Assembly: GCA_965250045.1 (NCBI GenBank)
Contig: OZ252286.1
Span: forward strand, 2,034,355 to 2,098,354
DNA length: 64,000 nt
Source of the DNA: Candidatus Marinacidobacterium sp.
GTDB lineage: Bacteria; Acidobacteriota; Vicinamibacteria; Marinacidobacterales; Marinacidobacteraceae
Direction of reading: 5' to 3'
Shown here piece by piece: positions 4,312-61,990 of this stretch (positions are counted from its first letter, which is position 1; the number at the start of each line of letters is the position of its first letter). Below the pieces are notes generated by a model. That model was not told where the DNA came from. It was given only the letters and a program-made list of their open reading frames with translations, and made no database searches. A program made the position numbers and the translations under genes.

Positions 4312-4473
4312 CCCCCAGTCGGGGGAAGACCGGGGGAACGACCGGGGGAAACCGGGGCGAAAGTGTGAGGGGGGCTTGTCCCCCGTTTCACGACACCGGG
4401 GCGCTACTGTCCACGCGCTTCAGTGCCTGACTACGAACCTCCTGGCGTGCCCCCGGCCCGGACCGCGCGACGC

Positions 4474-5825: not shown

Positions 5826-5853
5826 GGGAACGCCGGTCTTCAGACCGGCACGC
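5826..5853. repeat. Family-A hairpin motif (GGGAACGCC-GGTCttcaGACC-GGCAC variant)
   Basis: Matches the 25-bp family-A motif seen at >=10 loci in this window. Confidence 0.5.
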
Positions 5854-7069: not shown

Positions 7070-7279
7070 GTTTTTTTGGCGCGGTCGGCCAAGCCGGATT
7101 TCTCATACTCACGGTCGCAGGAAGGGTTCAACTTGCCGCAACTTGTTGACAATCCGAACAGTTCTTCGTGAAGCTCAGACTCCCGAACGGCGCGCTGGTC
7201 AGGGACCGCCGACCTTGGGCAGTTGCTGTGAAAATGCAGTTGCGCCTAGCCCCCGAAAGAGCGGGTGGCGCGCAGGCAC

Positions 7280-7304
7280 GGGAACGCCGACTTCTGGTCG
7301 GCAC
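7280..7304. repeat. Family-A 25-bp hairpin motif
   Basis: GGGAACGCCGACTTCTGGTCGGCAC. Confidence 0.6.
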
Positions 7305-7496
7305 GCGCGGGAGCGCGAAACCAGCGCCGATGACGCTGCGCCTTACCAACCTGAGGGCAGCACCCTCTTTCAACCCCGGATGGCGCAACCCCGCACTCGG
7401 TGAAGCTGCGCGGCGATCCTTGGTGCTGTCTGCGCCATGGGTGACAGCAGCATTGCGCCACTCGCCCGCCTCCGGCGGGCTGTGCCGGCCGCCACC

Positions 7497-7590
7497 GGGA
7501 GAACTGGCCGGAGGTCGGCGTTCCCTTGCCTGCGCGCCATCGTGCTGGCCGGAGGTCGGCGTTCCCTTGCCTGCGCGCCACCGTGCCGGC
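7497..7590. repeat. Two tandem inverted-orientation family-A units (41-bp period)
   Basis: CCGGAGGTCGGCGTTCCCTTGCCTGCGCGCCA repeated twice in tandem. Confidence 0.6.
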
Positions 7591-18793: not shown

Positions 18794-18799
18794 TCGAAA

Positions 18800-19037
18800 A
18801 CAGCCTGTGGACAAAGCCACGAGGCCCAGTTCTCCCGGTGGGGGCTCGACTGGCGATGCATCCCGGCTGAACCGCGCCTCTGCGCGGCGCTCATCGTTGC
18901 GCTTCGGTCGAAATACACTCGGGTCAGTTCTCCCGGTGGGGGCTCCTCCCTTGCGCGCCTTGTCAGCCGGACCCCCACCGGGAGAACTGGGCCTCACCAG
19001 CCTCGACGCTCACGCCACTTTGTCCACCGGCTGTTAC
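18800..19037. mobile_element. Family-B MITE-like element (copy B1) with terminal inverted repeats CAGCCTGTGGACAAAG / CTTTGTCCACCGGCTG
   Basis: TIRs read directly; related copies at 34550..34732, 45775..46440 (array) and 52184..52372. Confidence 0.6.
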
Positions 19038-19051
19038 GCTCCGGAGACGCG

Positions 19052-19446: not shown

Positions 19447-19740
19447 GGGAGCTCGGAGCCGCTGATCTGAGAACGCCGGTGTTCACACCGGCACCGCTGC
19501 GCGAAGCGCAGCGAGTTCGCGCAATGCTGCTTTCTTTCACGGGACGCAGCCCAGGGAACGCCGCTCTTCTGGTCGGCACACCCGCGCGGAGCGGGGCGCA
19601 CTGCGTACGGCTGTTTTCTCTGGTGGCGTTCCCGTGCCTGCGTCCCATGAAAGCGGTCAGCGATGAACCGTTCGCGACCCTGCGGGCCGCGGTGCCGGTC
19701 TGAAGGCCCCCACCGGGAGGAACTGGCCGGCGTTCCCAGC
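19447..19740. repeat. Family-A repeat cluster (several units) between gcvH and gcvP
   Basis: GAGAACGCCGGTGttcaCACCGGCACCGCTGCGCGAAGCGCAGCG... plus inverted partner units. Confidence 0.55.
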
Positions 19741-25092: not shown

Positions 25093-25117
25093 GTAGAAGC
25101 GCGGCCAGGGCAGGGAA

Positions 25118-25300
25118 CGCCAGTGTTCTACACCGGCACCGTTGCGCGACAGCGCAGCAAAGGCGCGCATCGCCGACCGCGAAGAAGCGCGGGGACGACT
25201 TGGGACGCCGACCTGCGGTCGGCACCGCCCGCCGGAGGCGGGCGGAAGCGCGTACGGCCGATTTGCGGGATGTTCTCGTGCCTGCGCGCTCCTTCTCCTT
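25118..25300. repeat. Family-A repeat cluster
   Basis: CAGGGAACGCCAGTGTTCTACACCGGCACCG... and GGGACGCCGACCTGCGGTCGGCACCGCCCGCCGGAGGCGGGCGG. Confidence 0.55.
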
Positions 25301-28776: not shown

Positions 28777-29163
28777 ATGAGCGACGAGATCACCCTGATC
28801 GCCGGCAAAGGCCTGCCGAAGCCGGCCGGCCCCTACAGCCCCGCCACCAGGGTGGGGAACCTGGTGTTCGTTTCCGGTCAGGTCGGGGTGGACCCGAAGA
28901 CCGGACTCACGCCCCACGGGGTCGCCGCCCAGACGGAGCAGGTGTTTCGGAACATCGCCTCCATCCTGGAGGCCGCGGGGTCGAGCCTCGACCGCGTGGT
29001 CCGCTGCGGGGTCTTCGTGGCGGACATGGGCGAGTTCGGGGCGATGAACGAGGTCTACGAGCGCATGTTCGACGGCCACCGCCCCGCCCGCAGCACCATC
29101 CAGCCCGAACGCCTCCCGGGAAGCGACTTCCTGGTGGAGATCGACGCCATCGCGGTCTGCTAG
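28777..29163 (+). CDS. ridA: RidA (YjgF/TdcF) family reactive-intermediate deaminase
   Basis: GPYSPA..GNLVFVSGQ, conserved C-terminal RSTIQ..LP.....EID. Confidence 0.85.
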   Translation: MSDEITLIAGKGLPKPAGPYSPATRVGNLVFVSGQVGVDPKTGLTPHGVAAQTEQVFRNIASILEAAGSSLDRVVRCGVFVADMGEFGAMNEVYERMFDGHRPARSTIQPERLPGSDFLVEIDAIAVC

Positions 29164-29230
29164 GTGTGGTCTCCCGGTAGGTTGTTCATGCGGGCCCTAT
29201 GCCCGCTTCATAGGGTAGAGTCTGAACGCG

Positions 29231-30283
29231 ATGAGAAACGTCCGACTTTGGGGCACCGTCGGATGCGCAGTCCTGACGATCGGGACGATTGCCAGCGCCT
29301 ATCGCTTCATCGGTCCCGGACGCAGCGCTATTGTCGGGTCGAAGGACGCCATCCGCTGGGACGAGTCCGCTTTCCCGCTCCGATTCCGGATGCTGGAGAA
29401 CGACCTTCTGCCGACCGACATCCAGGTTTCACGGGAGCTCTGGAGTGAGATCGTCGAGCGGGCGCTGAAGCGCCTGACAGACATCCCGACCTCCACCGCC
29501 CAAGTCATCCTCGAGGGGCCTCCCGTCGCCGGAGATCAAGTGGATCTCCAAAACGGGATCAACACGATCGGGTTTACCGCGGATGAGAGATTCCGGGATG
29601 AGTGGTGGACCGCTTATGCCCGAATTACCGTAGAGAAGGGAATCGTAGCCTGCGATGTCGCAGTGAGCCCCTACTTCGTCAAGAACTGGTCCCCTCAGGA
29701 CTACGAGCAGCTGCTTGAGGTGGTCGTCGTGCATGAGGTCGGGCACTGTCTCGGACTCCAACATACCGAGCCGCATCCTCTGCCACTGTGGACCGATCTG
29801 CCGGTGACCAAGGAAGCGGCCTTTCTTCCCGACCCCGTGATGTCTTACGCCAACTCGTACGGCCTCGATGTTCCGGCTGACGACGCCATGGCGATTTCGC
29901 TTCTGTATCCGGCCGGGGGGTTCCTCGAGTCGCACGGGGCGGTGAAGGGGACCGTCACCTCGGAAGGGGAACCGGCTCCTCACGCGTACGTGCAAACGGT
30001 ACAACCGGGAGGAACCGATGCACCGGGCCGCCCGGGTCCCGGGGCATTCACCAACCGGGACGGAGAGTTCGTTGTCGAAGGGCTTTCGCCCGGAAACTGG
30101 CTGCTGTGGGTCCATCCCATGCTCGTGGTCCGCCGGAACGCCCACGGGTCGATGTTGCAAACGGCGCACGAAGCCAATGCCCTGGCCTTCCTCGACCAGT
30201 GGAGTTGGGTGCCGGTCCGGGCGGGTAGGGTCACGGAGCATGTCGAGATCACGGTGCGGCATGGACGCGAGCTATCCGAGTGA
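29231..30283 (+). CDS. Secreted metzincin-type zinc metalloprotease
   Basis: HEVGHCLGLQH (HExxHxxGxxH); signal/TM N-terminus; gene GC ~60%, visibly below background. Confidence 0.8.
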   Translation: MRNVRLWGTVGCAVLTIGTIASAYRFIGPGRSAIVGSKDAIRWDESAFPLRFRMLENDLLPTDIQVSRELWSEIVERALKRLTDIPTSTAQVILEGPPVAGDQVDLQNGINTIGFTADERFRDEWWTAYARITVEKGIVACDVAVSPYFVKNWSPQDYEQLLEVVVVHEVGHCLGLQHTEPHPLPLWTDLPVTKEAAFLPDPVMSYANSYGLDVPADDAMAISLLYPAGGFLESHGAVKGTVTSEGEPAPHAYVQTVQPGGTDAPGRPGPGAFTNRDGEFVVEGLSPGNWLLWVHPMLVVRRNAHGSMLQTAHEANALAFLDQWSWVPVRAGRVTEHVEITVRHGRELSE

Positions 30284-30335
30284 GTGCGCCGTCCCAGCCC
30301 GCATGGACAGCGTCGTGCCGCCGCCCCGCCCCCGA

Positions 30336-31115
30336 ATGCTCGGCGGCGATCGCGGGATTCTTGTTGGTGCTCCGGTCGTTGGGATGGTGTTCCTTCTGTC
30401 GGCCTGCGACGGCATATCCTCCACGCCACCCCCGGCGCTGCCTCCGCTGCCCCCGCCGCCGGAACCGCCGGAAGCTCCAACCGGTGTGCGAGCTTCGGAC
30501 CGCGGCCAGGACTTCGTGGAGTGGACCTGGAACCCCGCGGAAGGCGCGACCGGCTACGAGGGAGAGGCTTTCCTCGAAAGCTCGCCTAACCAGGTAACCC
30601 GCATCCTGACCCGACAGCCGACCTACCGATGGGAGGGTCTCCCCGCTGACAAGATCGCGTCGATATTCCTGCGTTCCGTGCGGGACACGGTCGGTGGTCG
30701 GGCATATAGTCCGTGGGTAGGACGGTTCTCCGTCTCCACCCTGCCGCTACCACCCCAAGACTGCAGTGACCTGTTGAATGTGGAGTTTCTGGACCGCAAC
30801 GACGCTGCCGGAACGGCGCGGGGGAGACTCAGCCTCGCGGCGTGGGACGGATACGGTGCGACACTCGACTTCGTCCGCCCGTACACGATCCTGATTCCCG
30901 ACGGCGGAGAGAATCTGGACGTTCCCGGACTGTTCCCCACCACGGGGACTTTCGTGTCCGACCTGCGGTTCGCGCAGGAAGACGGACGGTTTCGGCAAAC
31001 AGCCGTGCTCGAGTGGGTGGCCGACTTGGAGATCAGGGCCACGGCCGCAGGATGTGACTCTGTCGTCGTTTCCTGCGACATGTTCGGTTGCGAGAAGCTC
31101 GACTCAGGGAGCTGA
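30336..31115 (+). CDS. Secreted lipoprotein with Pro-rich linker and Fn3-like domain (DFVEWTW family, third paralog)
   Basis: Lipobox LSAC, PPLPPPPEPPEAP linker, QDFVEWTWNPAEGATGYEGE; alternative start ATG 30303. Confidence 0.7.
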   Translation: MLGGDRGILVGAPVVGMVFLLSACDGISSTPPPALPPLPPPPEPPEAPTGVRASDRGQDFVEWTWNPAEGATGYEGEAFLESSPNQVTRILTRQPTYRWEGLPADKIASIFLRSVRDTVGGRAYSPWVGRFSVSTLPLPPQDCSDLLNVEFLDRNDAAGTARGRLSLAAWDGYGATLDFVRPYTILIPDGGENLDVPGLFPTTGTFVSDLRFAQEDGRFRQTAVLEWVADLEIRATAAGCDSVVVSCDMFGCEKLDSGS

Positions 31116-31124
31116 GGGTTCGCC

Positions 31125-31149
31125 GGGAAAAGAGGGCGCCCTCTTTCCC
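31125..31149. terminator. Bidirectional terminator palindrome between convergent genes
   Basis: GGGAAAAGAGGGCGCCCTCTTTCCC. Confidence 0.65.
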
Positions 31150-31238
31150 TGCCGCGCCGCCGGCTTCGTTGGGGTGAGGGGACTGCGAGGGCTCAGTGCG
31201 CCTTTCCCGGGTGAACCGGCCCGCGTTCCCTTCCGCCG

Positions 31239-32753
31239 TTACTGGCCCTCCCGGACCACCTCCAGGGTGAGCGGGTCGCGCTCCGGCAGGTGAGTAACGT
31301 CGCCGTTCAGGATGTCCGCCATCCTCGCCCGGCCCTCGGGGTCTCCGGGGCCGATGTCGTCCCAGATTCCGACCACCAGCATCACCATCTCGTCCGGCCG
31401 CAGGTACTTCTGCGCGACGGCCATCACGTCCTCGGCGGTCACCGCCTCGATCTGCTCGCGCCAGCGCGTCCAGTAGCCGTGATCGCGCTCCAGGAAGGCG
31501 TCGTTCGCGAAGATGCCGGCGCGGGCCTGGGCGCTCTCGAAGCGGCGGGGGAAGGTGTCCACGAGGGAACGCTTGGCGAGTTCGAGCTCGTCCGCGGACA
31601 CCGGCTCGTCGCGCATCCGCTCCACTTCCTCGAGCGCGATCGCGGCGGCGAGCGCTACCGTGGGGCTCTTCGACTGGTACCCCATCGTGTAGGCGCTGGG
31701 GCCGAGCGGGTTGAAGCCGAACCGGCCGCCGGCGCCGTAGGCGAGCCCCTCGTCCGAGCGCACCCGGCGCATGATCCGCGAGGTGAAGCCGCTCGCTCCG
31801 AGGATGTGGTCCATCACCTGGATCGCGGCGCGCTCCGGGTTCTCCCAATCGTCCCAGCGGGGCGCCAGGTTGCCGATGCGCACCTTGCCCTGGGGGATGT
31901 CCTTTTCGACGTGGTAGATGCCCGGGGCCGGGTTCCGCATCTCGTGCGGGGGGGGCCAGTCCACCGCCGCGGCGTCCCCGGCCGCCGGCCAATCCGCGAG
32001 TCGGGCCTCCAGAGTCTCCAGGATTTCAGACGTCTCCACATCTCCGGACACCGACCACACCATGTGCTCCGGCCTCCAGTAGCGGCGGTGGAAGTCCCGG
32101 AGATCTTCCGGAGTGATCGCATCCAGGTGGGCGGCCTTCATCCGCCGCCCGAGGTAGTGGTCCTCGCCGTAGACGAGGAAATCCCACTCGCGGCCGAGCA
32201 GGCTGTCCGCATCGTCGTTCCGCTGTTTGAGGTCCTCCCGGACGTTCTCCTTGCGCACCGAGAACCGCGCCTCGTCGAACCGCGGGTGGGTCAGCACGTC
32301 GAAGAAGAGGTCGAGGCTCTCCTCGAACACCGGGGTGATGGTGCGGAGCGAGGCCCGGGCCTCGGTATCGCGGGAGGAGGCGGAGATCTGGGCGGCGAGG
32401 AAGTCGATCCGCTCGTCCAACTCCTCCGGGTCGCGCTCGCCGGCCCCACCGTCGCGCATCATCGTCGCGGTCAGCGAGGAAAGCCCCACCCGGTCCGCGG
32501 GGTCCAGGAAGCTCCCGATGCGGAGCGTCACCCCGATGCGGATCAGTGGCAGGGTGTGATCCTCCACCACGATGACCGGGATGCCGCTGCTCAGCGTGCG
32601 GTGGTAGTCCCCCCCGTCCGGCGTCTCGAAGACGAAATCGGGAAAGACCAGCTCCTCGGGCCGGTCGGGAATGTCCTGCGCGGCCGCCGGAAGGGCCGCC
32701 GCCAAGAGCCCGGCCAAAAGGGCCGGAAGGAAGAAAATCCTGCTTCCGTTCAT
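31239..32753 (-). CDS. M16-family peptidase, likely non-catalytic partner subunit
   Basis: M16 fold composition with signal peptide; no HxxEH motif. Confidence 0.8.
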   Translation of the reverse strand: MNGSRIFFLPALLAGLLAAALPAAAQDIPDRPEELVFPDFVFETPDGGDYHRTLSSGIPVIVVEDHTLPLIRIGVTLRIGSFLDPADRVGLSSLTATMMRDGGAGERDPEELDERIDFLAAQISASSRDTEARASLRTITPVFEESLDLFFDVLTHPRFDEARFSVRKENVREDLKQRNDDADSLLGREWDFLVYGEDHYLGRRMKAAHLDAITPEDLRDFHRRYWRPEHMVWSVSGDVETSEILETLEARLADWPAAGDAAAVDWPPPHEMRNPAPGIYHVEKDIPQGKVRIGNLAPRWDDWENPERAAIQVMDHILGASGFTSRIMRRVRSDEGLAYGAGGRFGFNPLGPSAYTMGYQSKSPTVALAAAIALEEVERMRDEPVSADELELAKRSLVDTFPRRFESAQARAGIFANDAFLERDHGYWTRWREQIEAVTAEDVMAVAQKYLRPDEMVMLVVGIWDDIGPGDPEGRARMADILNGDVTHLPERDPLTLEVVREGQ

Positions 32754-34549: not shown

Positions 34550-34732
34550 AGTGGACGGCCCGTGAACAAAGCGGCGCGGTGTTCGATCGGCGATGCATCC
34601 CGACTGGACCGCTTCGCTCATCGTTGCGCTCCAGTCGGCATACGCTCGGTATGCCTCCCGAACCGCGCCTTGCCAGTCGGGCGCCTCGCCGATCTCGGCG
34701 CTCACGCCACTTTGTCCAAGGACTGTCAAGAG
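34550..34732. mobile_element. Family-B MITE-like element (copy B2, left end truncated)
   Basis: Shares internal sequence and right TIR CTTTGTCCAAGGACTG with B1/B3/B4. Confidence 0.5.
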
Positions 34733-37149: not shown

Positions 37150-37350
37150 GCAGGTCAGGGAACACCGCCGCGCGGCATGGCACCGCTGGCTTGGAACGCC
37201 GACCTCCGGTCGGCACCGCTGCGCGCAGCGCCGCGAAACCGCGAATCGCTGATCGGGAAGAATCGCGGGGACGGCTTGGAACGCCGACCTCCGGTCGGCA
37301 CAGCGGCGCGTAGCGCCGCGGGCGGTTCATCGCCGACCGCTCTGACGGGA
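37150..37350. repeat. Family-A composite: two direct 25-bp hairpin motifs ~95 bp apart
   Basis: GGAACGCCGACCTCCGGTCGGCAC twice with a conserved internal segment GAAACCGCGAATCGCTG..AATCGCGGGGACGGCTT. Confidence 0.6.
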
Positions 37351-37528
37351 CGCAGGCAATCAGCCGCGTAGCAGGACCGTCGTCAGCGTCCCCAGGAAGG
37401 TTCCGAGCAGAAGAATCAGGTTCGGCTCCGTCCCAATGCCCGGTCGGCGGCCCGCACTACCCGGCCTCCCCGCGCCACTGGCACAATCCCCACCATCGCA
37501 CCGGGAACCCGGTGGAGGGGGGCACGCC

Positions 37529-39250
37529 ATGCGCGACGGCAAGGCACTCACCGCGGCTTGGCCGCTGGCCCTGATCGCGGCGCTCGCCGCGTTCGGCTGT
37601 CGAGGGCCCGGAGGGGCCGCGTTCTCGGTGACGTTCGGCGCCGACCGGAGTCCCGAGCCCCTGGACGGTCGGCTGGTCCTCATGCTCTCCCAGGACGACG
37701 CGGCGGAGCCGCGCTTCCAGATCGTGGACGGCCCGGACAGCCAGTTGGCGTTCGGGGTGGACGTCGAGGGGTGGGCGCCGGGAGAGCCGGTGATGGTGGA
37801 CGGCGGGGCTTTCGGCTACCCGATCCGCAGCCTGGCCGAGGTTCCGGCCGGGGAGTACCGGGTTCAGGCGCTGCTGAACCGCTATCAGACCTACCAGCGG
37901 GCCGACGGCCACACCGTCAAGCTTCCGCCCGACCGGGGTGAAGGACAGCAGTGGAACCGCAAGCCCGGGAACCTGCTCTCCACCCCGCAGACGGTCTCGC
38001 TGGGGCCGGGAGGATCGGCCCGCATCGACATCGTGCTCGACCAGGAGATCCCCCCGCTGGCGGTGCCGCCCGAGTCGGAATACGTGAAGCACGTCAGGAT
38101 CGAGAGCGAGCTCCTCACCGCCTTTTGGGGGACTCCCACCGAACTCGGGGCCTGGGTGCTCCTCCCGCACGGCTTCGACGAGCATCCGGAGGCGCGCTAT
38201 CCGATCGCCGTCAACCACGGCCATTTCCCCTACACCTTCGGCAACTGGCGGGAAGAGCCCCCGGACCCCGACCTGGAGTGCGAGTACTCCGCCCGCTTCG
38301 ACCTCCCCTGCTACAACCGGATCCAGCAGGAACACGCATGGCAGCTCTATCAGGACTGGACCGGCGACGACTTCCCCCGGATGCTGGTGGTGGAGATCCA
38401 GCACGCCAATCCGTTCTACGACGATTCCTACGCGGTGAATTCGGAGAACGTCGGCCCCTACGGCGACGCCATTACCTACGAGCTCATTCCCGAGATCGAA
38501 CGCCGGTTCCGCGGGATCGGGGAGGGGTGGGCGCGCTTCCTCTACGGCGGCTCCACCGGGGGCTGGGAGGCGATGGCCGCGCAGGTGTTCTATCCCGAGG
38601 AGTACAACGGGGCGTGGATCGCCTGCCCGGACCCCATCGACTTCCGGGCGTTCACCGTGGTCAACCTCTACGAAGACGAAAACGCCTACCACCTCGACAG
38701 CCCGTTCAAGCGGACACCGAGGCCCGGGCGGCGGGACGGGCAGGGACACGTCCTGGCGACTCTCGAGGAGATGAACCACCGGGAGCTGGTCCTGGGAACC
38801 CGCACCCGGTCGGGTCAGCAGTGGGATGTGTGGGAAGCGGTCTACTCACCGGTCGGCGAGGACGGGTATCCCCGCCGCATCTGGGACAAGGTCACCGGGG
38901 AGATCGACCCGGAGGTGGCCGCCTACTGGCGGGAGAATTACGACCTCAGCTTCATCCTGCGCCGCGACTGGGAGACCCTGGGGCCCCGGATCGCCGGCAA
39001 ACTCCACATCTACGTGGGGGACATGGACAACTACTACCTGAACAACGCGGTCAAGCTCACCGAGGACTTCCTGGAGGCCACCTCGGATCCCCCCTACGGC
39101 GGGGAAGTGGACTACGGGGACGGCGACGAGCACTGCTGGAACGGCGACCACACCCGCGGCAACGGGTTTTCCCGCCTCCGGTACATCCAGATGTTCGCCC
39201 CCCGCATTCAGGGTCGAGCGGTCCCCGGACGGGGCCACGAGCGGGAGTAG
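37529..39250 (+). CDS. Lipoprotein esterase-family alpha/beta hydrolase
   Basis: Lipobox-like AAFGC; nucleophile-elbow-like GGSTGGW; RBS GGTGGAGGGGGG. Confidence 0.7.
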   Translation: MRDGKALTAAWPLALIAALAAFGCRGPGGAAFSVTFGADRSPEPLDGRLVLMLSQDDAAEPRFQIVDGPDSQLAFGVDVEGWAPGEPVMVDGGAFGYPIRSLAEVPAGEYRVQALLNRYQTYQRADGHTVKLPPDRGEGQQWNRKPGNLLSTPQTVSLGPGGSARIDIVLDQEIPPLAVPPESEYVKHVRIESELLTAFWGTPTELGAWVLLPHGFDEHPEARYPIAVNHGHFPYTFGNWREEPPDPDLECEYSARFDLPCYNRIQQEHAWQLYQDWTGDDFPRMLVVEIQHANPFYDDSYAVNSENVGPYGDAITYELIPEIERRFRGIGEGWARFLYGGSTGGWEAMAAQVFYPEEYNGAWIACPDPIDFRAFTVVNLYEDENAYHLDSPFKRTPRPGRRDGQGHVLATLEEMNHRELVLGTRTRSGQQWDVWEAVYSPVGEDGYPRRIWDKVTGEIDPEVAAYWRENYDLSFILRRDWETLGPRIAGKLHIYVGDMDNYYLNNAVKLTEDFLEATSDPPYGGEVDYGDGDEHCWNGDHTRGNGFSRLRYIQMFAPRIQGRAVPGRGHERE

Positions 39251-39375: not shown

Positions 39376-39700
39376 GCTCTTGCGGCACGCAGGCACGGGA
39401 ACGCCGACCTCCGGTCGGCACCGCTGGGCGAAGCCCAGGGAAACCGCGTATCGCTGTTTGAGAAAAATCGCGGGGACGGCTTGGAACGCCGACCTCCGGT
39501 CGGCACAGCCCGCCGCAGGCGGGCGGAACGGCGGGCTGCCAATCGGCATGAAGCGCGGATGCGAAAGCCATCCGGGGTGGAGAGACGGTGCGGAACCCAC
39601 GCTGGCTCGGGCACAGCGTCATCGGCGCCGGTTTCGCGCTCCCGCGCGATGCCGGCCGGAGGCCGGCGGTCCGTTTCCTGCAGCGCCACCGCGTGGGGGA
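39376..39700. repeat. Family-A composite cluster
   Basis: Same two-motif unit as 37150..37350 plus an inverted partial unit. Confidence 0.55.
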
Positions 39701-44432: not shown

Positions 44433-44579
44433 GGCTCGGGAACGCCGGCCAGTCCTCCCGGTGGGGGTCTTCCGACCGGTCCCGCGGCCCGCAGGGCCGC
44501 GAATCGCGAACCGCCACTCCCCGTGGGGCGTCGCGCTCCGCACCCCCCAACCCCCTCGCTATCCTCCCCTCCGTTCCCC

Positions 44580-45774: not shown

Positions 45775-46440
45775 GCGGGCTGAGCAGCCTGTGCACAAAG
45801 TCATGCGGCCCAGTTCTCCCGGTGGGGGCTCGGCCGGCGATCCATCCCGGCCAAACAGCCGGTGGTGAAACCCACGCGGCCCAGTTCTCCCGGTGGGGGC
45901 TCGACCGGCGATCCATCCCGGCCAAACAGCCGGTGATGAAACCCACGCGGCGTTCGACCGGCGATCCATCCCGGCCAAACAGCCGGTGATGAAACCCACG
46001 CGGCGTTCGACCGGCGATCCATCCCGGCTGAACCGAGTCGCTTCGCGCCGCTCGTCGTTGCGTTTCGGTCGGAATACACCAAGTATTCCTCCCTCACGCG
46101 CCTTGTCAGCCGGGCGCCTCCCCGGCCTCGGCGCTCACGTGGGTTCCACCACCGGCTGAACCGAGTCGCTTCGCGCCGCTCGTCGTTGCGTTTCGGTCGG
46201 AATACACCCGGGCCAGTTCTCCCGGTGGGGGCTCCTCCCTCACGCGCCTTGTCAGCCGGGCGCCTCCCCGGCCTCGGCGCTCACGTGGGTTCCACCACCG
46301 GCTGTTCACCGCGTCGCTTCGCGCCGCTCGTCGTTGCGTTTCGGTCGAAATACACTCGGTATTCCTCCCTCACGCGCCTTGTCAGCCGGGCGCCTCGCCG
46401 ACCTCGGCGCTCACGCCACTTTGTCCACAGGCTGCTAAGT
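45775..46440. repeat. Tandem array of family-B MITE fragments (3 x ~60-70 bp subrepeats then 3 x ~150 bp subrepeats)
   Basis: Repeated CCCAGTTCTCCCGGTGGGGGCTCG..., CGACCGGCGATCCATCCCGGCCAAACAGCCGGTGATGAAACCCACGCGG and GCTGAACCGAGTCGCTTCGCGCCGCTCGTCGTTGCGTTTCGGTCGGAATACAC blocks. Confidence 0.65.
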
Positions 46441-49116: not shown

Positions 49117-49158
49117 GCAACCGCGGATCGCTGACTGGTGCAGTGGTCCGGGAGGCAA

Positions 49159-49340
49159 GGGAACGCCGACCTCCGGTCGGCACAGCCCGCCGAAGGCGGG
49201 CGGCAGGGAAGGACCCCGAGTTCAGGGGTGGTTCACCTCTCGGCCGGAACCCGGGCGTTCAGCGCCATCCAGACGGTTGCGCGGTACACGCCTTTCGCTG
49301 CGCTCCGCGCAGCGGTGCCGACCGGAGGTCGGCGTTCCCG
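49159..49340. mobile_element. Family-A MITE, full copy with 25-bp terminal inverted repeats GGGAACGCCGACCTCCGGTCGGCAC
   Basis: Left TIR 49159..49183 and right TIR 49316..49340 are exact reverse complements; near-identical copy at 61735..61923. Confidence 0.7.
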
Positions 49341-49573
49341 TGCCTGCACGTCGCTCCGCCCGGTGGCCGGGGCGCCGAGACCTGCACCATCCCGGAACTG
49401 CAACTTCGTGCCCAGGCGGGGTGTACGGGAAGACCCGATCATGAGGGTTTCTCCCGGTGGGGCCCGGCACCGCCCCGCGCAGCGGGGCGAAACCGCGCCG
49501 CGCCGCCCCTCCGGATGGCACCCCGCAAACGGAAGGCTTACCCTCCGCCCTACGCCCACCCCGGGAGGTTCCC

Positions 49574-50827
49574 ATGTCCGGCACCCCGTTCTCCCCTCTC
49601 TCCCGTCCCCTCGGCTTCGAGTGCTACCCCTCCGGTCTCGGCCCCAGCCGCCGGGCCTTCCTGCGCGCCGTCGCCAGCACCGCGGCGGGCGCCGCGACCG
49701 CTGGCGCCCTCCCCGGATGTGACACCGCGCCCGGCGCACCGGACGCCGCCCCGGAACCGGCCCCCGCGGCCAGCGCCGCGGATGCGCTGAGTTCCGTCCC
49801 GACCTTCCCCGAAGGAGGCTTCGCCGAGGGCGCCGTCCGCATCGGCTTCAACGAGAACCCGCTCGGGCCGTCACCCAAGGCGCTCGCCGCCATCGCGGCC
49901 GACGGCCTCGCTGCCGGGAACCGCTACAACTACCCCGACACCGTCCGCGACCAGATCGCGGCCCACCACGGCACGACCCGCGAACACGTCCTCGTCGGCT
50001 GCGGCTCGACGGAGTTCCTGCAATTTCTGCCCTGGGGCTTCCTGAAGCCGGGCACGACCAGCCTCGTCCTGCCCGAGATCACCTACGGCTGGTGCGGCGG
50101 GGTGGCGGCGGCGATCGGCGCCGAAGTAATTCACACCCCGATGGGGGCGGAAGGACGACTCGACGTCGCGGCGATGCGGGCCGCCATCCGTCCCGACACC
50201 CGGATCGTGTACGTCGCGAACCCCAACAACCCGACCGGGGCGCCGGTGGCCCACGACGAGATCGTTGCGCTGGCGGAGGCCGTGCCCGAGGGCGGGATCC
50301 TCATCGTGGACGAGGCCTACGCCGAGTTCCTGGCCGAAGGGGGAGATGCGGTATCGCTGGCGCTCGCGGGCGGACCCGTGATCGTGGCCCGGACCTTCTC
50401 CAAGGCGTACGGCATGGCCGGCCTCCGCATCGGTTACGTCGTGGGCTCCGGCCCGATGCTCGAGAAGGCGACCGGCGTCTGGTGGGGCGACTTCGGGCTG
50501 AACACCGCGGCGGCGGTGGCCTGCGGGCCGGCGCTCGCCGACCGGGAGCATGTCGACAACTACGTGCGGACGGTGGACGATGGCCTCGCCGAACTGCGCG
50601 CCGGACTCGGCGAACTCGGCTGCGTTTCCTGGCCGCACCGGGCGCCGTTCCTGATGACGGATCTGGGAAGCGAGGCCCTCCCGGTGGTCCGGGAGCTCTT
50701 CCGGCGCGGGATCTACGTGCAGGACGGCGCCGGCTGGGGTCTCCCGACCTTCCTCCGGATCTCGGTGGGCCTCTCGGAGCACCACCAGGCGCTCCTCGGC
50801 GCCCTCCGGGAGATCCGCATCGCCTGA
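49574..50827 (+). CDS. Class I/II (HisC-like) aminotransferase with twin-arginine signal and lipobox-like Cys
   Basis: SRRAFLRAVASTAAGAATAGALPGC Tat motif; NPNNPTG and SKAYGMAGLRIGY (PLP-lysine) motifs. Confidence 0.8.
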   Translation: MSGTPFSPLSRPLGFECYPSGLGPSRRAFLRAVASTAAGAATAGALPGCDTAPGAPDAAPEPAPAASAADALSSVPTFPEGGFAEGAVRIGFNENPLGPSPKALAAIAADGLAAGNRYNYPDTVRDQIAAHHGTTREHVLVGCGSTEFLQFLPWGFLKPGTTSLVLPEITYGWCGGVAAAIGAEVIHTPMGAEGRLDVAAMRAAIRPDTRIVYVANPNNPTGAPVAHDEIVALAEAVPEGGILIVDEAYAEFLAEGGDAVSLALAGGPVIVARTFSKAYGMAGLRIGYVVGSGPMLEKATGVWWGDFGLNTAAAVACGPALADREHVDNYVRTVDDGLAELRAGLGELGCVSWPHRAPFLMTDLGSEALPVVRELFRRGIYVQDGAGWGLPTFLRISVGLSEHHQALLGALREIRIA

Positions 50828-50949
50828 CGGTAGGAGCCCGGCCTGATCGCCTTCTGTGGAATATCCGCTACGCGAGCTATGGCGTGCATCGACATCCCTT
50901 CGCACAGCATGGCGAAGACCTGAGTTGGGTAGCTTGTTCATGGCGATTA

Positions 50950-51034
50950 GGTTGACAATCTCCCGGATATGGTTGACAATTATGCTACAATAGATTTCCA
51001 GCGTCAACAGTAAGGTTGTCAAAAGGAGAGAACG
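50950..51034 (+). promoter_or_regulatory. Promoter/operator: two direct GGTTGACAAT motifs 21 bp apart, an inverted GGTTGTCAAA copy over the RBS, -10-like GACAAT/TACAAT
   Basis: Read directly; motifs at 50950..50959, 50971..50980, 51014..51023; ~45% GC. Confidence 0.5.
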
Positions 51035-52069
51035 GTGACTGGAGTCCGCGCCCGAGGCGAGAAGATCAGGCGCTTCATTCTTGAGCGTGTGGAGAAATCT
51101 CCGGGCGATGTGGCGAAAGCAACATCCGCGGAGTTTGGGATCACCCGACAAGCGGTCAACAAACACCTTCGGCGACTTCGTGCCAAAGGTGTCCTTCGTC
51201 GATCAGGTAACACCCGCGCCAGCGCTTATCAGCTGGCTCCATTATCGCAATGGCGTCACATCTGCCAGATTGAGCCAGGTCTGGCGGAGGATGTTGTATG
51301 GATGCGTGAGGTTAGAGACGCTCTGGGCGACTTGCCAGACAACGTTCTAGAAATCTGGCAGTATGGTTTCACCGAGATGTTTAACAATGCAATTGATCAC
51401 GCGGATGGCACGCATATTGGGGTTCAGATCAGAAAGACCGCCGCTACCACAGAAATGATGATTACTGACGATGGATACGGCATCTTCAAGAAGATTCAAA
51501 CTGCAATGGGCTTGTTGGATGCACGACACTCGATCTTGGAGCTTTCAAAGGGGAAGCTAACAACCGACCCGACGCATCATACCGGTGAAGGCATTTTCTT
51601 CTCCTCCAGGATGTTTGATCTCTTCGACATCGTTTCCGAAGGGGTTTACTTTTCTCACAGATTCGAAGGTGCAGAAGACTGGATCATGGAAGAAGACTGG
51701 AAGTCCAAGGGAACAGCTGTGTGGATGAGGCTGAATAACCACACGGCAAGAACAACCGATAAGATTTTTGACCAATACAGTTCCGGTGATGACTACGGAT
51801 TCACAAAAACAGTTGTTCCGGTGAGAATGGCCCAATACGGGGAAGACAAGCTTATTTCCCGCTCGCAAGCAAGACGAGTACTGGCACGCATAGAGTTATT
51901 CAAGACCGTTCTATTCGACTTCACAGAAGTTAAGACCATCGGCCAAGCTTTTGCAGATGAGATATTCCGCGTATTTGCCATGCAGCATCCAGAGATCCAG
52001 TTGGTTCCGATTCACGCGAACTCGGAGACAAAGAGGATGATTGCAAGGGCAACACGAGGGAGCGAGTGA
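51035..52069 (+). CDS. Three-domain fusion protein: N-terminal winged HTH + RsbW/SpoIIAB-like GHKL ATPase (HATPase_c) + C-terminal STAS-like domain (DUF4325-like)
   Basis: HTH (GITRQAVNKHLRRLRAKGVL), N-box EMFNNAIDHA, G1 ITDDGYGI, G2-like HTGEGIFF; C-terminal ~90 aa alpha/beta STAS-like; GTG start after RBS AAAGGAGAG; gene GC ~50% vs ~70% background. Confidence 0.7.
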   Translation: MTGVRARGEKIRRFILERVEKSPGDVAKATSAEFGITRQAVNKHLRRLRAKGVLRRSGNTRASAYQLAPLSQWRHICQIEPGLAEDVVWMREVRDALGDLPDNVLEIWQYGFTEMFNNAIDHADGTHIGVQIRKTAATTEMMITDDGYGIFKKIQTAMGLLDARHSILELSKGKLTTDPTHHTGEGIFFSSRMFDLFDIVSEGVYFSHRFEGAEDWIMEEDWKSKGTAVWMRLNNHTARTTDKIFDQYSSGDDYGFTKTVVPVRMAQYGEDKLISRSQARRVLARIELFKTVLFDFTEVKTIGQAFADEIFRVFAMQHPEIQLVPIHANSETKRMIARATRGSE

Positions 52070-52183
52070 CGATAGGGAAACGCGATCCCAATCGTGTGCG
52101 CGCGGCTTTTGGCGGCGGGAGAAAAGCGCGGTCGGCAGCTCAGGTGCGGGCTCATCGCGGCGCGTTCGACTACTGTCCTTGAC

Positions 52184-52372
52184 AGCCTGTGGCAAAATCC
52201 ACGCGGCGTTCGACCGGCGATCCATCCCGGCTGAACCACTCCGCTTCGCTACGTTCTGCGTTGCGTTTCGGTCGAAATACACCCGGTATTCCTCCCTCAC
52301 GCGCCTTGTCAGCCGGGCGCCTCACCGGCCTCGGCGCTCACGCGGGTTTCACCACAGGCTGTTAACGGTTGC
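52184..52372. mobile_element. Family-B MITE-like element (copy B4) with TIR CAGCCTGTGG / CCACAGGCTG
   Basis: Read directly. Confidence 0.6.
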
Positions 52373-53103
52373 AGCATCCCTCCCTTGGATCGCGTCTCGG
52401 AGCGGCACTATCTGTCCCGTCGTCTGCTGGACGATGTGGAAGGCGCGCTGATTCCGGTCGCGCGGTCGGGATGGAGCTCGTGACACACCGGCACCGTGGC
52501 AGGGTCCGTAGGTCACGTCAACCCCCGCAGAATTCAAACTGAGCCACTAACTTCTACTCCACTTTCTTTCCCTCAGAGCCGTCGAAGGTAGATGAAGGAC
52601 AGAAGGAGAGCTAGCGAAAGCGGAACCAGGTTTCCGCCGATCATCCACCGCTCCATCCTCTCCAGCGGCTATTTCGGAAAGGCCCACCACAACGCGAGGT
52701 TGAAGCAAAGTGATCTGGCCGCGGCGGCAACCATGAACCACCCTGACGCGCGATTGGTCGGATACCAGACCTCCGGAGACGAAAGGGTTCTTGGCGTCCG
52801 GAAGCCAAGTATGCGGTTGGGCGACCTTGCCCAGGATCATCGGTATGGACGACGCCAAGACCACTAACGGAACGACGTAGCCGAGCAGGTGTTGGCCGTA
52901 TTCCCTCCAGGTGAACCAGCGTGGCCGGGGGCGTGCTCCGCTTCAGCCCTCGTCTCCGGCTGCCACCGGACACGAGCAATGGTATTCGACGACCCCGACA
53001 GTTGACAGGGGAGGCAGCCACGCAACATCCCGCAGCCAATTCAGCGCCGACATGCTCCGCTGCCAAGATCTGGAGCGCCTGAAGCCGGCTACTAAACGAA
53101 CGT

Positions 53104-54351
53104 TCAGTTCGTCCAAATCTCGCTAACCGGCGCCGCCAGCATCCGGGGATCGCCCATTGGCAGGACGTCCCGTCCCGTATGGAACAGGACCCCGCCGGCG
53201 AAGTCCGATCCGCAACGCTCCGCCAACCGGACGAGCCCGCGCCCGTCGCGAGCGGCAAACGACGAGGAAGCCTTGATCTCGAACCCCCAGGTTCGAGCGC
53301 CGCGGGTCATCACCAGATCCACTTCGACCTGGTCCTTGTCCCGGTAATGCCAGAACTCGAGGTCCGGATCCGTCCAGGCCGCCTGGGCGATGAGCTGCTG
53401 CACGACAAAGGATTCCAGCAGGTGTCCCTGGAGATCCCGGTTCCCGAGCAGGTCGGGGGCGGTTAACGATGCAAGCGTCGCGGCGAGACCGCTGTCCACG
53501 AGATGCGTTTTCGGCGAACGGATGAGGCGTCGGCCCGGGCTGCGGTGCCAGGCCGGCAGGCGGCGAGCCAGAAACAGGCGTTCCAGAACCGCCACGTAGT
53601 GCTCCACGGTGCTGCGGTGGAGATCGGCGTCGCCGGCCAGGCTGGCGGCCCGGAAGAGCCGGCCCTTGCGATTCGCGAGGAGCGCCAGAAGCCGCCCCAA
53701 CTCGCTGGCGTCCCGGATCCGGGCCACATCCCGGACATCGCGTTCGATAACGGTCCGAAGGTATTGGCGGTGCCACGCACGCGTCGTCGCAGGAGTCAGG
53801 GGCAGCACGGAGGGGTAGCCACCCGCCACGATCCGCTCCTCGAGGGTCGGGCCGGCTTCTGCCGAACCGCCTCCGATGCGAGGCCGGAGTCCCCCATCCA
53901 GCAGGAGTCGTAGAAATTGCCCCGGGCGACCTTCTTTCTCGGCCTCCGTCAGCGGTTGGAGGTCCGCGATTGCCATCCGCCCGGCCAGCGACTCGGTGAC
54001 CCGTGGCAGGAGCAGCAGGTTCGCAGATCCGGTCAGCAGGAAGCGGCCAGGCTCGCGGTCTTGATCGACGGACCGTTTGATCGCGGGTAGGAGTTGCGGA
54101 ACTCGCTGTACTTCGTCCAGTGTCACCCGGCGTGGCAAGGCGGCCACGAAGCGCACCGGATCCAGGGCTGCGGCACGCTCGGCCGGGTCGTCATCGAAGC
54201 TGACGTACGCCCGATCACTTGCCAGGCGCTGGACGAGAGTGGTCTTTCCGCTCTGCCGTGGCCCAATGACGGCGACCACCGGCATGTAGGAGAGGTCTCT
54301 CTCGATCGCTGTCGATAGCAGGCGCGGGACGAAGGAGGGTTGGGTGGCCAT
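53104..54351 (-). CDS. AAA+ ATPase of the AAA_14 / DUF4143 family
   Basis: Walker A GPRQSGKTTL, Walker B region LDEVQ, ~415 aa architecture typical of this family. Confidence 0.8.
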   Translation of the reverse strand: MATQPSFVPRLLSTAIERDLSYMPVVAVIGPRQSGKTTLVQRLASDRAYVSFDDDPAERAAALDPVRFVAALPRRVTLDEVQRVPQLLPAIKRSVDQDREPGRFLLTGSANLLLLPRVTESLAGRMAIADLQPLTEAEKEGRPGQFLRLLLDGGLRPRIGGGSAEAGPTLEERIVAGGYPSVLPLTPATTRAWHRQYLRTVIERDVRDVARIRDASELGRLLALLANRKGRLFRAASLAGDADLHRSTVEHYVAVLERLFLARRLPAWHRSPGRRLIRSPKTHLVDSGLAATLASLTAPDLLGNRDLQGHLLESFVVQQLIAQAAWTDPDLEFWHYRDKDQVEVDLVMTRGARTWGFEIKASSSFAARDGRGLVRLAERCGSDFAGGVLFHTGRDVLPMGDPRMLAAPVSEIWTN

Positions 54352-54383
54352 TTGCCGGTCATTCTAGCGGCCAAGTGTCGATT

Positions 54384-54513
54384 ATTGGAGCGTCCATCTG
54401 TCGGTTAGCTGGACAATAAACCCACGATGCCCGCAATTGTTCAATGACTTGCGTATCGGACAAAGTGTCAGTCAAGACAGCGTCCATCTGTCGATTACCG
54501 GAACCCAAAGTGA
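54384..54513. promoter_or_regulatory. Iteron-like direct repeats (core AGCGTCCATCTGTCGRTTA x2; TGTCRRTYA x4) upstream of the AAA ATPase gene
   Basis: Read directly; ~50% GC spacer. Confidence 0.4.
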
Positions 54514-54595
54514 AGCGGTGACCTTTCCACCTCTCCGAGTCAAGGCCGCAATCGTCCTCCGGCGCCAGCCCCGACGGCCCCGGCATCCGGAGTTA

Positions 54596-54631
54596 GCCAT
54601 CCCGAGATAATTATCTTGAAATGGCTAAACG
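54596..54631. promoter_or_regulatory. Nested palindrome TTAGCCATcccgaGATAATTATCttgaaATGGCTAA just downstream of the beta-lactamase stop
   Basis: Outer 8-bp arms and inner perfect 10-bp palindrome GATAATTATC. Confidence 0.4.
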
Positions 54632-55769: not shown

Positions 55770-55920
55770 CGGAGGCGGGCCATGAGCGCGGGTTTCGCGC
55801 TCCCGCGCGATGCCGGCCGGAGGCCGGCGTTCCAAGCCGTCCCCGCGCTTTTTTGCTGGCGGCGATTTGCGGTTTCGCGGCCCTGCAGGCCGCGGCGCCG
55901 GTGTGAACACCGGCGGTCCC
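55770..55920. repeat. Family-A composite (inverted orientation)
   Basis: GTGCCGGCCGGAGGCCGGCGTTCCAAGCCGTCCCCGCG...GGTGTGAACACCGGCGGTCCC is the reverse complement of the 37150/39376 unit. Confidence 0.55.
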
Positions 55921-56711
55921 TTCTCCGACGCCTCACCCGGCACGGGGATTGCTTGCCACAACAGCGAGATGCGGGGTTCGGTTTTGCTGGCTCTCGGCCT
56001 GCTTGCGGTGTCCACTACGGCGGTAGCGCAGGAAACCCCGCGCGTCCTCGAGGTCACGCTTGCCGACCTCGACGAAGACGCCCTCGACTTCCTGATCGGC
56101 TGGGAACGCTGGAAGGGAGACATTCTGGACCTCGCGTCCGAGGGTTATGCGCGGTTCACGTTCGTGCCGCTGCTGGCGGTCGAACCGGGCCTGCCGCTGA
56201 ACGCGCGGTTCTCCGGGCGCGTCTTTGCGGCTTCCGGGCAGCGGGCGGCGCGCCGCCCGACCCGGACATCCCGCCCGACCCGGACATCCCATTTGCCCCG
56301 CCGCCCCATCCGGACCGCCCGCGCCCCGCGCGACGGAGCGTCCGACCGGGGGCGCCCCCGTCCTCCGCACGGGCTGGCTCCGCTCGGCAAGCTGCCCCGC
56401 TTCGGCCGGCGCCCCCCGCCCAGGCCCCGGAACACGGGACGCGCTCCGGCGCGGGGACCTCGCGAACTCGGAGCGCCGGCGCCGCGAAACGGCAGCCGGG
56501 GAGGCGCCGCCGGCGCCTCCACCGGAGGAGCCCCCACCGGAAGAGCGAAACCGCGCGGCGGCGCATCCGGGCCGCGGCGCGGGGCCGCCTCCGGCATGCG
56601 GAACGGCGGAACCGGAAAACCGCGCCAGCACCGGTAAAATCACGCGTTCCCCGCTCCCGGCGGGGAGAAGCGACCGGATTCCCCGGTCCTGAGCTTCCGG
56701 AGGCACGTGCG

Positions 56712-61643: not shown

Positions 61644-61734
61644 ACGCGCTCGGCTAACCGCCGCCCACACAAGGTGGCGCCGTCGGTACGGGAACGCCGC
61701 CCCAGACCGATACGGTGGCGCGTAGGCGCGGGAA

Positions 61735-61923
61735 CGCCGCCCTCCGGGCAGTTCTCCCGGTGGGGCCCGGCACAGCCCGCCGCAGGCGGGCGGCAGGGAG
61801 GGACCCCGAGTTCGGGGGTGGCTCGCCTCTCGGCCGGGACCCCGGCGTTCAGCGTCATCCGGACGGCTGCGTGGTACACGCCTTTCGCTGCGCTTCGCGC
61901 AGCGGTGCCGACCGGAGGTCGGC
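61735..61923. mobile_element. Family-A MITE (copy near-identical to 49159..49340), preceded by a partial unit at 61695..61734
   Basis: Shared ~170-bp internal sequence and right TIR GTGCCGACCGGAGGTCGGCGTTCCC. Confidence 0.65.
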
Positions 61924-61990
61924 GTTCCCTTGCCCGGCCGCCACCCCCGGGCCCCGCTTGGTAGATTCCCACCCTGGCGGGGCGGCACCT

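Follow-up and report, generated by a model that had tools for sequence, protein, structure and literature searches.

We analysed a hairpin-forming repeat in a 64,000-nucleotide stretch of the genome of Candidatus Marinacidobacterium sp. (contig OZ252286.1; hereafter the window), where it bounds an intergenic element at 49153–49345. The 25-mer at both ends of this element, GGGAACGCCGACCTCCGGTCGGCAC, is probably (we put this at about 0.8) the repetitive extragenic palindrome (REP) of a system of REPs and a REP-associated tyrosine transposase (RAYT) in a clade of marine and sponge-associated Acidobacteriota. Judged from its sequence, the element would be an inverted doublet resembling a REPIN (REP doublet forming hairpin), and the loci with two direct copies would be tandem units like those of bacterial interspersed mosaic elements (BIMEs). 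An earlier note on this DNA had taken the element for a miniature inverted-repeat transposable element (MITE) with terminal inverted repeats (TIRs), moved by a DDE transposase of the IS630/Tc1 or IS5 type. That reading is largely refuted, as we found no target-site duplication and the one insertion sequence (IS) examined beside a copy of the repeat has unrelated ends. The note had also proposed a search for a transposase with matching TIRs; the gene that, in related genomes, turned out to be flanked by the hairpins codes for a RAYT-type transposase of the Y1 tyrosine (HUH) class, and the note's passing remark that the copies might be REP/BIME-like named the right family.

Hairpin units and their arrangement

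The window, with a G+C content of ~70%, holds ~22 copies of the hairpin (GGAAC, stem GCCGACC/GGTCGGC around the loop TCC, then AC, with stem variants) at 12 intergenic loci, about one copy per 3 kb, where 0 are expected by chance. The 25-mer has 10 matches at ≤3 mismatches (7280+, 7542−, 25201+, 37192+, 37277+, 39397+, 39482+, 49159+, 49315− and 61905−), compared with 0.00 expected from 100 shuffles. A covariance model built from 45 hairpin variants found 18 copies in the window at E<0.05, and 4 extra copies are split by an insert of 18–19 nt (7490–7525−, 19692–19737−, 44438–44482+ and 61730–61772+). The recurrence reported earlier is confirmed; at 5826, 19470, 25114 and 55895, listed there as the 25-mer, the repeat is instead a variant with the same flanks and another stem and loop (GGTC-TTCA-GACC or GGTG-TTCA-CACC). 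The figure of at least 10 intergenic loci grows to 12 with two extra ones, at 1479–1509 and 44438–44482. Scanning the window against Rfam, at gathering and permissive thresholds, returned two tRNAs and one chance match only, and no match to the repeat.

The main element is indeed bounded by exact inverted 25-mers (49159–49183 and 49315–49339). Its arms (49153–49186 and 49312–49345) are 34 nt long, 94% complementary, and reach 6 nt beyond the 25-mer on each side. In the predicted fold the two REPs are paired, with local hairpins inside (z = −10.4 as DNA and −9.4 as RNA). The interior recurs at 61774–61904 (90.8%), at the related locus L073 (88.5%; L numbers denote loci in related DNA) and, more distantly or partly, at 9 further loci. 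The second full element that had been described (61730–61929) does share the 131-bp interior at 90.8%, but its left repeat is not an exact copy, as it carries a 19-nt insertion. The parts of the main element are as follows.

49153–49345, no strand: REPIN-like inverted doublet (left REP, hairpin B, 131-bp spacer, hairpin B′, right REP), arms 34 nt
49159–49183, + strand: REP (hairpin A), the exact 25-mer, with tag GGGAAC, stem GCCGACC/GGTCGGC, loop TCC and tail AC; 42.7 bits, E=1.6e-6
49185–49203, + strand: hairpin B, left unit, GCCCGCC-GAA-GGCGGGC, the sequence-variable second hairpin
49293–49314, − strand: hairpin B, right unit, CGCTGCGC-TCC-GCGCAGCG on the + strand, a sequence unlike the left one
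49315–49339, − strand: REP, the exact 25-mer, inverted; 42.4 bits

When 214 copies of the repeat, taken both from the window and from related genomes, were aligned, a sharply bounded core emerged. The DNA examined (~0.85 Mb) was selected by an exact 24-mer of the repeat, and variant counts are therefore biased. In order, the core consists of CGGCTT (~70% of copies) or GGCA(A/C)G (~27%), GGAAC, GCC-NNNN, the loop, NNNN-GGC and AC. Its 24–25 nt include a 7-bp stem and a loop of 3–4 nt (TCC or TTCA), with a DNA fold of −8.1 kcal/mol and z of −2.7 and −3.7; the candidate single-stranded substrate of the RAYT would be CGGCTTGGAACGCCGACCTCCGGTCGGCAC. Among 478 matches found by their flanks only, the four distal stem pairs are perfectly complementary in 348, which fall into five main stem types (GACC/GGTC, 156 with loop TCC and 20 with loop TCT; GGTG/CACC, 48; GGTC/GACC, 44 with loop TTCA and 31 with loop TCC; GGCC/GGCC, 22). 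As the stem differences are compensated on both sides, it is the hairpin that is conserved and not its sequence. The conserved unpaired flanks are GGAAC on the 5′ side and AC on the 3′ side (GT...GTTCC on the other strand), neither GTAG nor CGTC.

A second GC-rich hairpin follows directly 3′ of the core, with a perfect stem of ≥5 bp in 277 of 337 distinct units versus 27 of 337 shuffled tails. It takes 133 different sequences in these 337 units, and its loop is mostly C-GNA-G (131/240), which we take to be a very stable type of DNA triloop. Across the units (for example at 49185–49203, 37218–37236 and 39423–39441) it keeps a perfect stem of 7–9 bp, and the versions differ between the two ends of a doublet. 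To account for this variability, there may be many subfamilies, compensatory change may be fast, or target hairpins may have been captured.

Inverted doublets follow a rule of orientation. In the DNA examined we counted 80 singletons, 33 isolated '+-' doublets, 0 '-+' doublets and ~56 tandem or composite arrays; neighbouring pairs were '+-' in 38 cases and '-+' in 3. Tandem arrays have periods of 40–42, 80–86 and 114–122 bp, with conserved linkers. The variant with two direct copies and a GAAACCGCG...CGGGGACGGCTT core, also described before, is present at 37187–37301, 39392–39506 and 25108–25225 and in reverse at 55810–55925. Doublets fall into spacing classes near 135, 167 and 209 bp (elements of 160–235 bp, spacers of 110–185 bp) and into several families whose interiors are unrelated and whose ends are the same. 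Two doublets of one metagenome-assembled genome (MAG), in L028 and L089, are 98% identical, with 3 differences in the 174 bp from ACGGCTT to GCCGT, and their flanks are unrelated and not duplicated; this pair upholds the earlier view of a dispersed, non-coding, multi-copy family with discrete units bounded by inverted repeats. A CRISPR-like reading of the regular arrays was rejected, as their 'spacers' are conserved between loci. REP orientation showed no clear association with local GC skew, a proxy for the replication strand (43/37 versus 26/37).

Discrete non-coding units of 160–235 bp with inverted copies at their ends, some of them near-identical and dispersed, are also what would be seen if these were deletion derivatives of an IS, with 25-bp TIRs bound in trans by a DDE transposase (IS630/Tc1, IS5 or similar). 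DDE transposases do occur in these genomes (IS1182/IS5-like in L066, IS21-like in L013). We nevertheless give a classical MITE next to no probability. Target-site duplications of k = 3–8 bp, sought at 31 doublets at offsets of 0–25 nt, were matched no more often than in the shuffled control. The IS1182/IS5-like element beside the repeat copy in L066, the adjoining IS that was examined, is out as an autonomous partner, as its ends are unrelated. The supposed TIR is itself a hairpin with compensatory stem changes, unexpected for a binding site in double-stranded DNA, and singles and arrays (80 and >50) outnumber doublets (33). No DDE gene was found between inverted copies in the ~0.85 Mb of DNA examined; the only gene found there repeatedly is that of the Y1 transposase.

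A tyrosine transposase gene between inverted repeats

A tblastn search with E. coli RayT (MG1655) matched one locus, L002, of a sponge MAG that carries the exact 24-mer. Here six + units upstream and five − units downstream enclose a 235-amino-acid (aa) open reading frame (ORF) that has a Shine-Dalgarno sequence. The protein scored 89.1 bits with the NCBIfam model NF047646, 'REP-associated tyrosine transposase' (curated cut-off 80), and 16.7 bits with the IS200 model, below the cut-off of 55. It also matches Pfam Y1_Tnp (1.2e-7) and PDB 4ER8, E. coli TnpA-REP (1.6e-4); in the latter alignment its HUH motif PNHVHV stands opposite PEHMHC, and VYIENNPV, with the catalytic tyrosine, opposite DYIYINPV. 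At E ≤ 1e-10 a protein search had 5130 matches, of which the closest are 58–98% identical, and many lie on contigs of ~1 kb, as expected if the repeats break assemblies.

Homologues with 58–87% identity were present at 9 further loci, and in 7 of the 10 loci, which represent 5 contig lineages, the RAYT gene is flanked by convergent hairpin arrays. The units upstream and downstream of the gene number 6/5 in L002, 6/10 in L099, 9/11 in L100, 4/4 in L101, 3/3 in L102, 8/2 in L104, 3/2 in L105 and 2/5 in L106; flanking is partial in L103 (2/1), L098 and L107. The stem type of the repeats shifts with the lineage of the RAYT gene, and this holds in five independent contig lineages. The same argument, stem type tracking transposase lineage, first tied REPs to RAYTs. 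The gene sits between + and − copies, that is, in the topology of the '+-' doublets, and no TnpB-like gene adjoins it at the loci read. Public gene calls of 229–403 aa without a Pfam match lie wholly on the REP arrays beside RAYT genes (L099 3615–4481; L100 1932–2846 and 3615–4481; L106 3197–3886; L107 3141–4004; L101 3675–4886), and are probably spurious ORFs from GC-rich repeats.

By analogy with the biochemistry of E. coli TnpA-REP, the IS200/IS605 family and IS608 TnpA, we infer that the RAYT, a Y1/HUH tyrosine transposase taken as single-copy, would recognize the hairpin in single-stranded DNA, cut beside it within the conserved tag and rejoin the strands. Units would in this way be copied or reshuffled without target-site duplication, and singles, inverted dimers and arrays would result. 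Conservation stops sharply at both edges of the 24–25-nt core, and neighbouring modules combine freely; both features fit cleavage and joining at these edges.

The RAYT gene occupies two conserved sites, RidA-RAYT-M16 peptidase, with TTCA-loop REPs, and gmk-RAYT-coaBC-udg-priA, with TCC-loop REPs. Both neighbourhoods are present in the window. The window starts inside coaBC (3–569), followed by udg and priA (region 1–1736), and in five related loci the RAYT gene is directly upstream of coaBC; the gene order suggests that the main REP class may have its cognate transposase ~1 kb upstream of the window start. For the DNA beyond that edge, an exact 35-mer had no match among metagenome contigs, and exact-protein look-ups of the window's udg and priA likewise returned nothing.

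If the repeats were the ends of an autonomous IS200-like element (a 'TIRtron'), the dispersed copies would be solo ends left by its own movement. RAYT genes do stand in different contexts in different genomes, the one in L107 is bracketed by IS110-family genes, and Di Nocera et al. report TIR-flanked Y1 transposases in Acidobacteria (PMC3733652). We consider this explanation highly improbable. The same two syntenic sites are occupied even though the proteins are only 71–87% identical, which argues for vertical descent and not hopping. In addition, the gene scores far under the IS200 model cut-off, and the repeats vastly outnumber it, with 22 repeats and 0 genes in the 64-kb window.

The repeats could also be elements selected by the host (stabilizers of mRNA 3′ ends, terminators or protein-binding sites) and spread mainly by recombination and slippage, the RAYT nearby being incidental. 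Copies do lie just past stop codons, 1 nt after der and 22–62 nt after five other genes, and structure is kept by compensation. By context statistics that rest on crude gene calls, made from G+C at third codon positions, convergent gene pairs are enriched at repeat-bearing intergenic regions (33/80 versus 62/276). Array length at the RAYT gene differs between strains of one sample (L099 and L100), as slippage would give. Against this, hairpins are not followed by a T-tract, a scan for intrinsic terminators found no site at any REP locus, and orientation relative to the upstream gene is unbiased (50 versus 47). The copies are therefore not canonical terminators. They occur in divergent promoter regions as well (55810–55925 and 61730–61934), and Rfam has no match to them. 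A host role would also leave unexplained the strict '+-' rule and the recurring association with the transposase, and we regard it as an improbable origin of the family. It is compatible with a REP/RAYT system as a secondary role: an effect on transcripts is plausible, and as the copies sit in transcribed intergenic DNA the hairpins probably act on mRNA 3′ ends.

Several points weigh against assigning the repeats to a REP/RAYT system. With E. coli RayT and an acidobacterial RAYT as tblastn queries, no RAYT was found in the 64-kb window, so that the gene is tied to this genome through repeat homology only. At the RidA-M16 site of the window (28777–31239), which carries a RAYT gene in OY821641 and one other genome, there is a metalloprotease-like gene (29231–30283) and no REP array; one speculation is that a RAYT was lost here and left the window's TTCA-loop REPs behind as orphans. 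Described REP superfamilies are defined by a GTAG or CGTC tag (PMC3733652), which this family lacks, and the doublet spacers are far longer than in described REPINs, with only some of them self-complementary. Copy number refers to the window and the matches listed and not to whole genomes. Mobility of the units is proposed by analogy, and ordinary satellite expansion beside the gene might in principle account for flanking arrays that reach 11 units.

Further loci, an 18–19-nt module and turnover

The intergenic position of all copies, as reported earlier, was confirmed by the surrounding tRNA genes and ORFs with Pfam matches, between which every locus sits. Neighbours identified by Pfam are der, gcvP, udg, priA, a creatininase-family gene, a PDZ protein, an aminotransferase, an amino-acid kinase and a beta-lactamase-family gene. 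The remaining loci of the window are listed below.

1479–1509, − strand: single REP, GGTG-TTCA-CACC variant, between udg and priA; 36.6 bits
5821–5851, + strand: single REP, GGTC-TTCA-GACC, beginning 1 nt past the stop of der (4423–5820); 43.6 bits
7275–7571, no strand: cluster between two tRNA genes, a REP at 7275–7304+ and then two tandem − strand REPs with a 41-bp period, at 7490–7525 (split by the 18-nt module) and 7542–7571
19464–19737, no strand: cluster upstream of gcvP, a GGTG-TTCA-CACC REP at 19464–19494+ and a degenerate REP at 19549–19579+
19692–19737, − strand: inverted TTCA-type REP of the gcvP cluster, split by the 18-nt module
25108–25225, + strand: tandem pair, a TTC(T)A-loop variant at 25108–25139 and then a GACC-TGC-GGTC copy at 25196–25225
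37187–37301, + strand: tandem BIME-like pair of ~85-bp units, each REP + hairpin B + hairpin C; 42.6 and 45.6 bits
39392–39678, no strand: tandem pair at 39392–39421+ and 39477–39506+, and an inverted variant REP with a GGCC stem at 39649–39678−
44438–44482, + strand: TTCA-type REP split by the 18-nt module
55810–55925, − strand: tandem pair, a GGCC-TCC-GGCC REP at 55810–55839 and a GGTG-TTCA-CACC REP with degenerate tag at 55895–55925; 46.3 and 22.1 bits
61672–61695: degenerate REP copy near the second doublet
61730–61934, no strand: second doublet, of the same spacer family as 49153–49345; repeat pair 89%
61730–61772, + strand: left REP of the second doublet, with a 19-nt insert
61905–61929, − strand: right REP of the second doublet, exact

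The second doublet has an ortholog at L073 1723–1899 (CBDHFO01), beside genes that are 91% identical. Relative to this ortholog, and to the paralog at 49159, the left repeat at 61730 carries a clean 19-nt insertion. The inserted sequence belongs to a module, CCAGTTCTCCCGGTGGGG, which occurs 12 times in the window versus 0.68 expected, and 125 times in the ~0.85 Mb of DNA examined. Its window positions are 61749–61765, 7490–7506(−), 19708–19722(−), 44450–44466, 45811–45827, 45882–45898, 46214–46230, 18827–18843, 18925–18941, 18973–18989(−), 1431–1447(−) and 49446–49462. The module interrupts REPs with either class of loop, in every case following CCGG, and destroys the TTCA-type hairpin. Sequences that are otherwise identical may have it or lack it, and it is joined to shuffled contexts on its left and right. 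Between two genomes it appears as a double insert of 36 nt (L079 and L090). It is accompanied by no target-site duplication and has no fold of its own. We suggest, as a doubtful reading that we think unlikely to be right, that it is an ultra-small insertion or a strand-joining scar, made by the RAYT or another single-strand enzyme at CCGG-containing sites. If true, the module would be far smaller than any described mobile DNA, and would inactivate REP hairpins.

The module is also found inside a second repeat family, where the presence of this 18-mer accounts exactly for the difference between units of 71 and 53 bp. This family, which is intergenic and unrelated to the first, occupies 18798–19040, 34578–34730, 45782–46440 and 52182–52366 of the window, with tandem units of 53/71 and ~130–148 bp, and is also present in L059, L062, L067, L081 and L090.

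The hairpin repeat extends beyond the window, as the earlier note had asked to be checked: the exact 24-mer is present in Acidobacteriota, in >96 stretches that represent several species-level genomes of Vicinamibacteria, Ca. Marinacidobacterium and sponge MAGs. Among the matches listed, all hosts of the 24-mer are Acidobacteriota MAGs, and the viral contigs and plasmids searched had no match to the repeat. The family is old and bound to this lineage. Sites nonetheless turn over, as the tandem TCC units at 37187–37301 of the window correspond to one TTCA-type doublet at the orthologous site of OY821641. Comparison of filled and empty orthologous sites for whole doublets, in genomes that proved too divergent (78–92%), gave ambiguous cases only. 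The REP clusters at 37187–37301 and 39392–39678 bracket a 604-aa ORF (37436–39250, + strand) with no Pfam, NCBIfam or PADLOC match. This ORF is absent at the syntenic site of OY821641 (L084 6640–7120), where a different small ORF lies between REPs of its own. Gene replacement may be especially frequent at sites flanked by REPs.

Some features of the same DNA stand apart from the repeats. An island of lower G+C (0.59–0.64) at 50000–54600 of the window encodes a HATPase/DUF4325 (STAS-like) protein (51035–52069) and an AAA_14/DUF4143 ATPase (53104–54351, − strand) that matches the PADLOC candidate defence family PDC-S01 (3e-144). Ca. Marinacidobacterium OZ244986 has an identical multi-copy IS1182/IS5-like IS of 1664 bp (L066 2234–3897 and L091) and an identical multi-copy segment of >2 kb with a large serine recombinase beside an IS21-like transposase (L013 54–2078 and L016). 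Neither of these two elements is related to the REP family.

Relation to known systems

Most of the defining features of REP/BIME/REPIN and RAYT systems are found here; two are not, namely the GTAG or CGTC tag and the short-spacer form of the REPIN. With the REPs and BIMEs of E. coli TnpA-REP and the Pseudomonas REPtrons (Nunvar 2010, Ton-Hoang 2012, PMC3733652), the family shares a short, imperfectly palindromic extragenic sequence whose unpaired tag is conserved, a high copy number, occurrence as singles, inverted dimers and clusters, mostly after genes, and a Y1/HUH gene between inverted copies without target-site duplication. It differs from them in its tag (GGAAC with a CGGCTT or GGCAAG extension), in a hypervariable second hairpin in each unit, in the length of the units (80–120 bp), in arrays of up to 11 units beside the gene instead of one or two REPs, and in its host, which belongs to the Acidobacteriota (Vicinamibacteria) and not to the Proteobacteria. 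As with REPINs (Bertels & Rainey 2011, PMC3116915), the doublets have a fixed inverted orientation, behave as single units, include near-identical dispersed copies and persist at orthologous sites, with an apparently vertically inherited transposase. The spacers are, in contrast, 110–185 bp long (131 in the window element) and of several unrelated families, only some doublets are long hairpins throughout, and neither excision nor duplication of a whole doublet was seen. The window element does not have the short-spacer, single-hairpin form: pairing joins its REP arms only, and its interior folds into local hairpins.

RAYT-like genes flanked by non-GTAG inverted repeats, termed TIRtrons or TIRYTs, have been described in Koribacter versatilis and other soil Acidobacteria (PMC3733652). 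These repeats are likewise in part self-complementary ('double palindromic') and dispersed, with dimers and clusters. The TIRtrons were, however, described as moderately abundant and from soil Terriglobia, whereas the present family is dense; the likeness is drawn from the published descriptions. Bacterial MITEs (Correia/NEMIS, ERIC, RUP and Nezha) resemble the doublets in being 160–235 bp in size, non-coding, intergenic, bounded by inverted repeats and strongly folded when transcribed. In contrast to MITEs, the doublets have no target-site duplication and no cognate DDE IS that we could find, and their terminal repeat forms a hairpin in its own right and turns up singly and in direct arrays as well. 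The traits that stand out as unusual are the bipartite unit with a hypervariable hairpin, the long units, the very large arrays and the two loop classes that track two RAYT sites. In literature searches, neither of the sequences nor the name Marinacidobacterium turned up in any paper.

Work on REP/RAYT systems has, to our knowledge, been confined almost entirely to Proteobacteria. The system described here, if read correctly, would place a dense and well-organized one in uncultured marine and sponge Acidobacteriota, with a different recognition tag and lineage-specific compensatory stems. Its arrays break metagenome assemblies and create spurious ORF calls, and recognizing them would improve annotation. 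Across the lineages, the matched transposases and hairpins would also form a natural series in which to ask what a RAYT reads.

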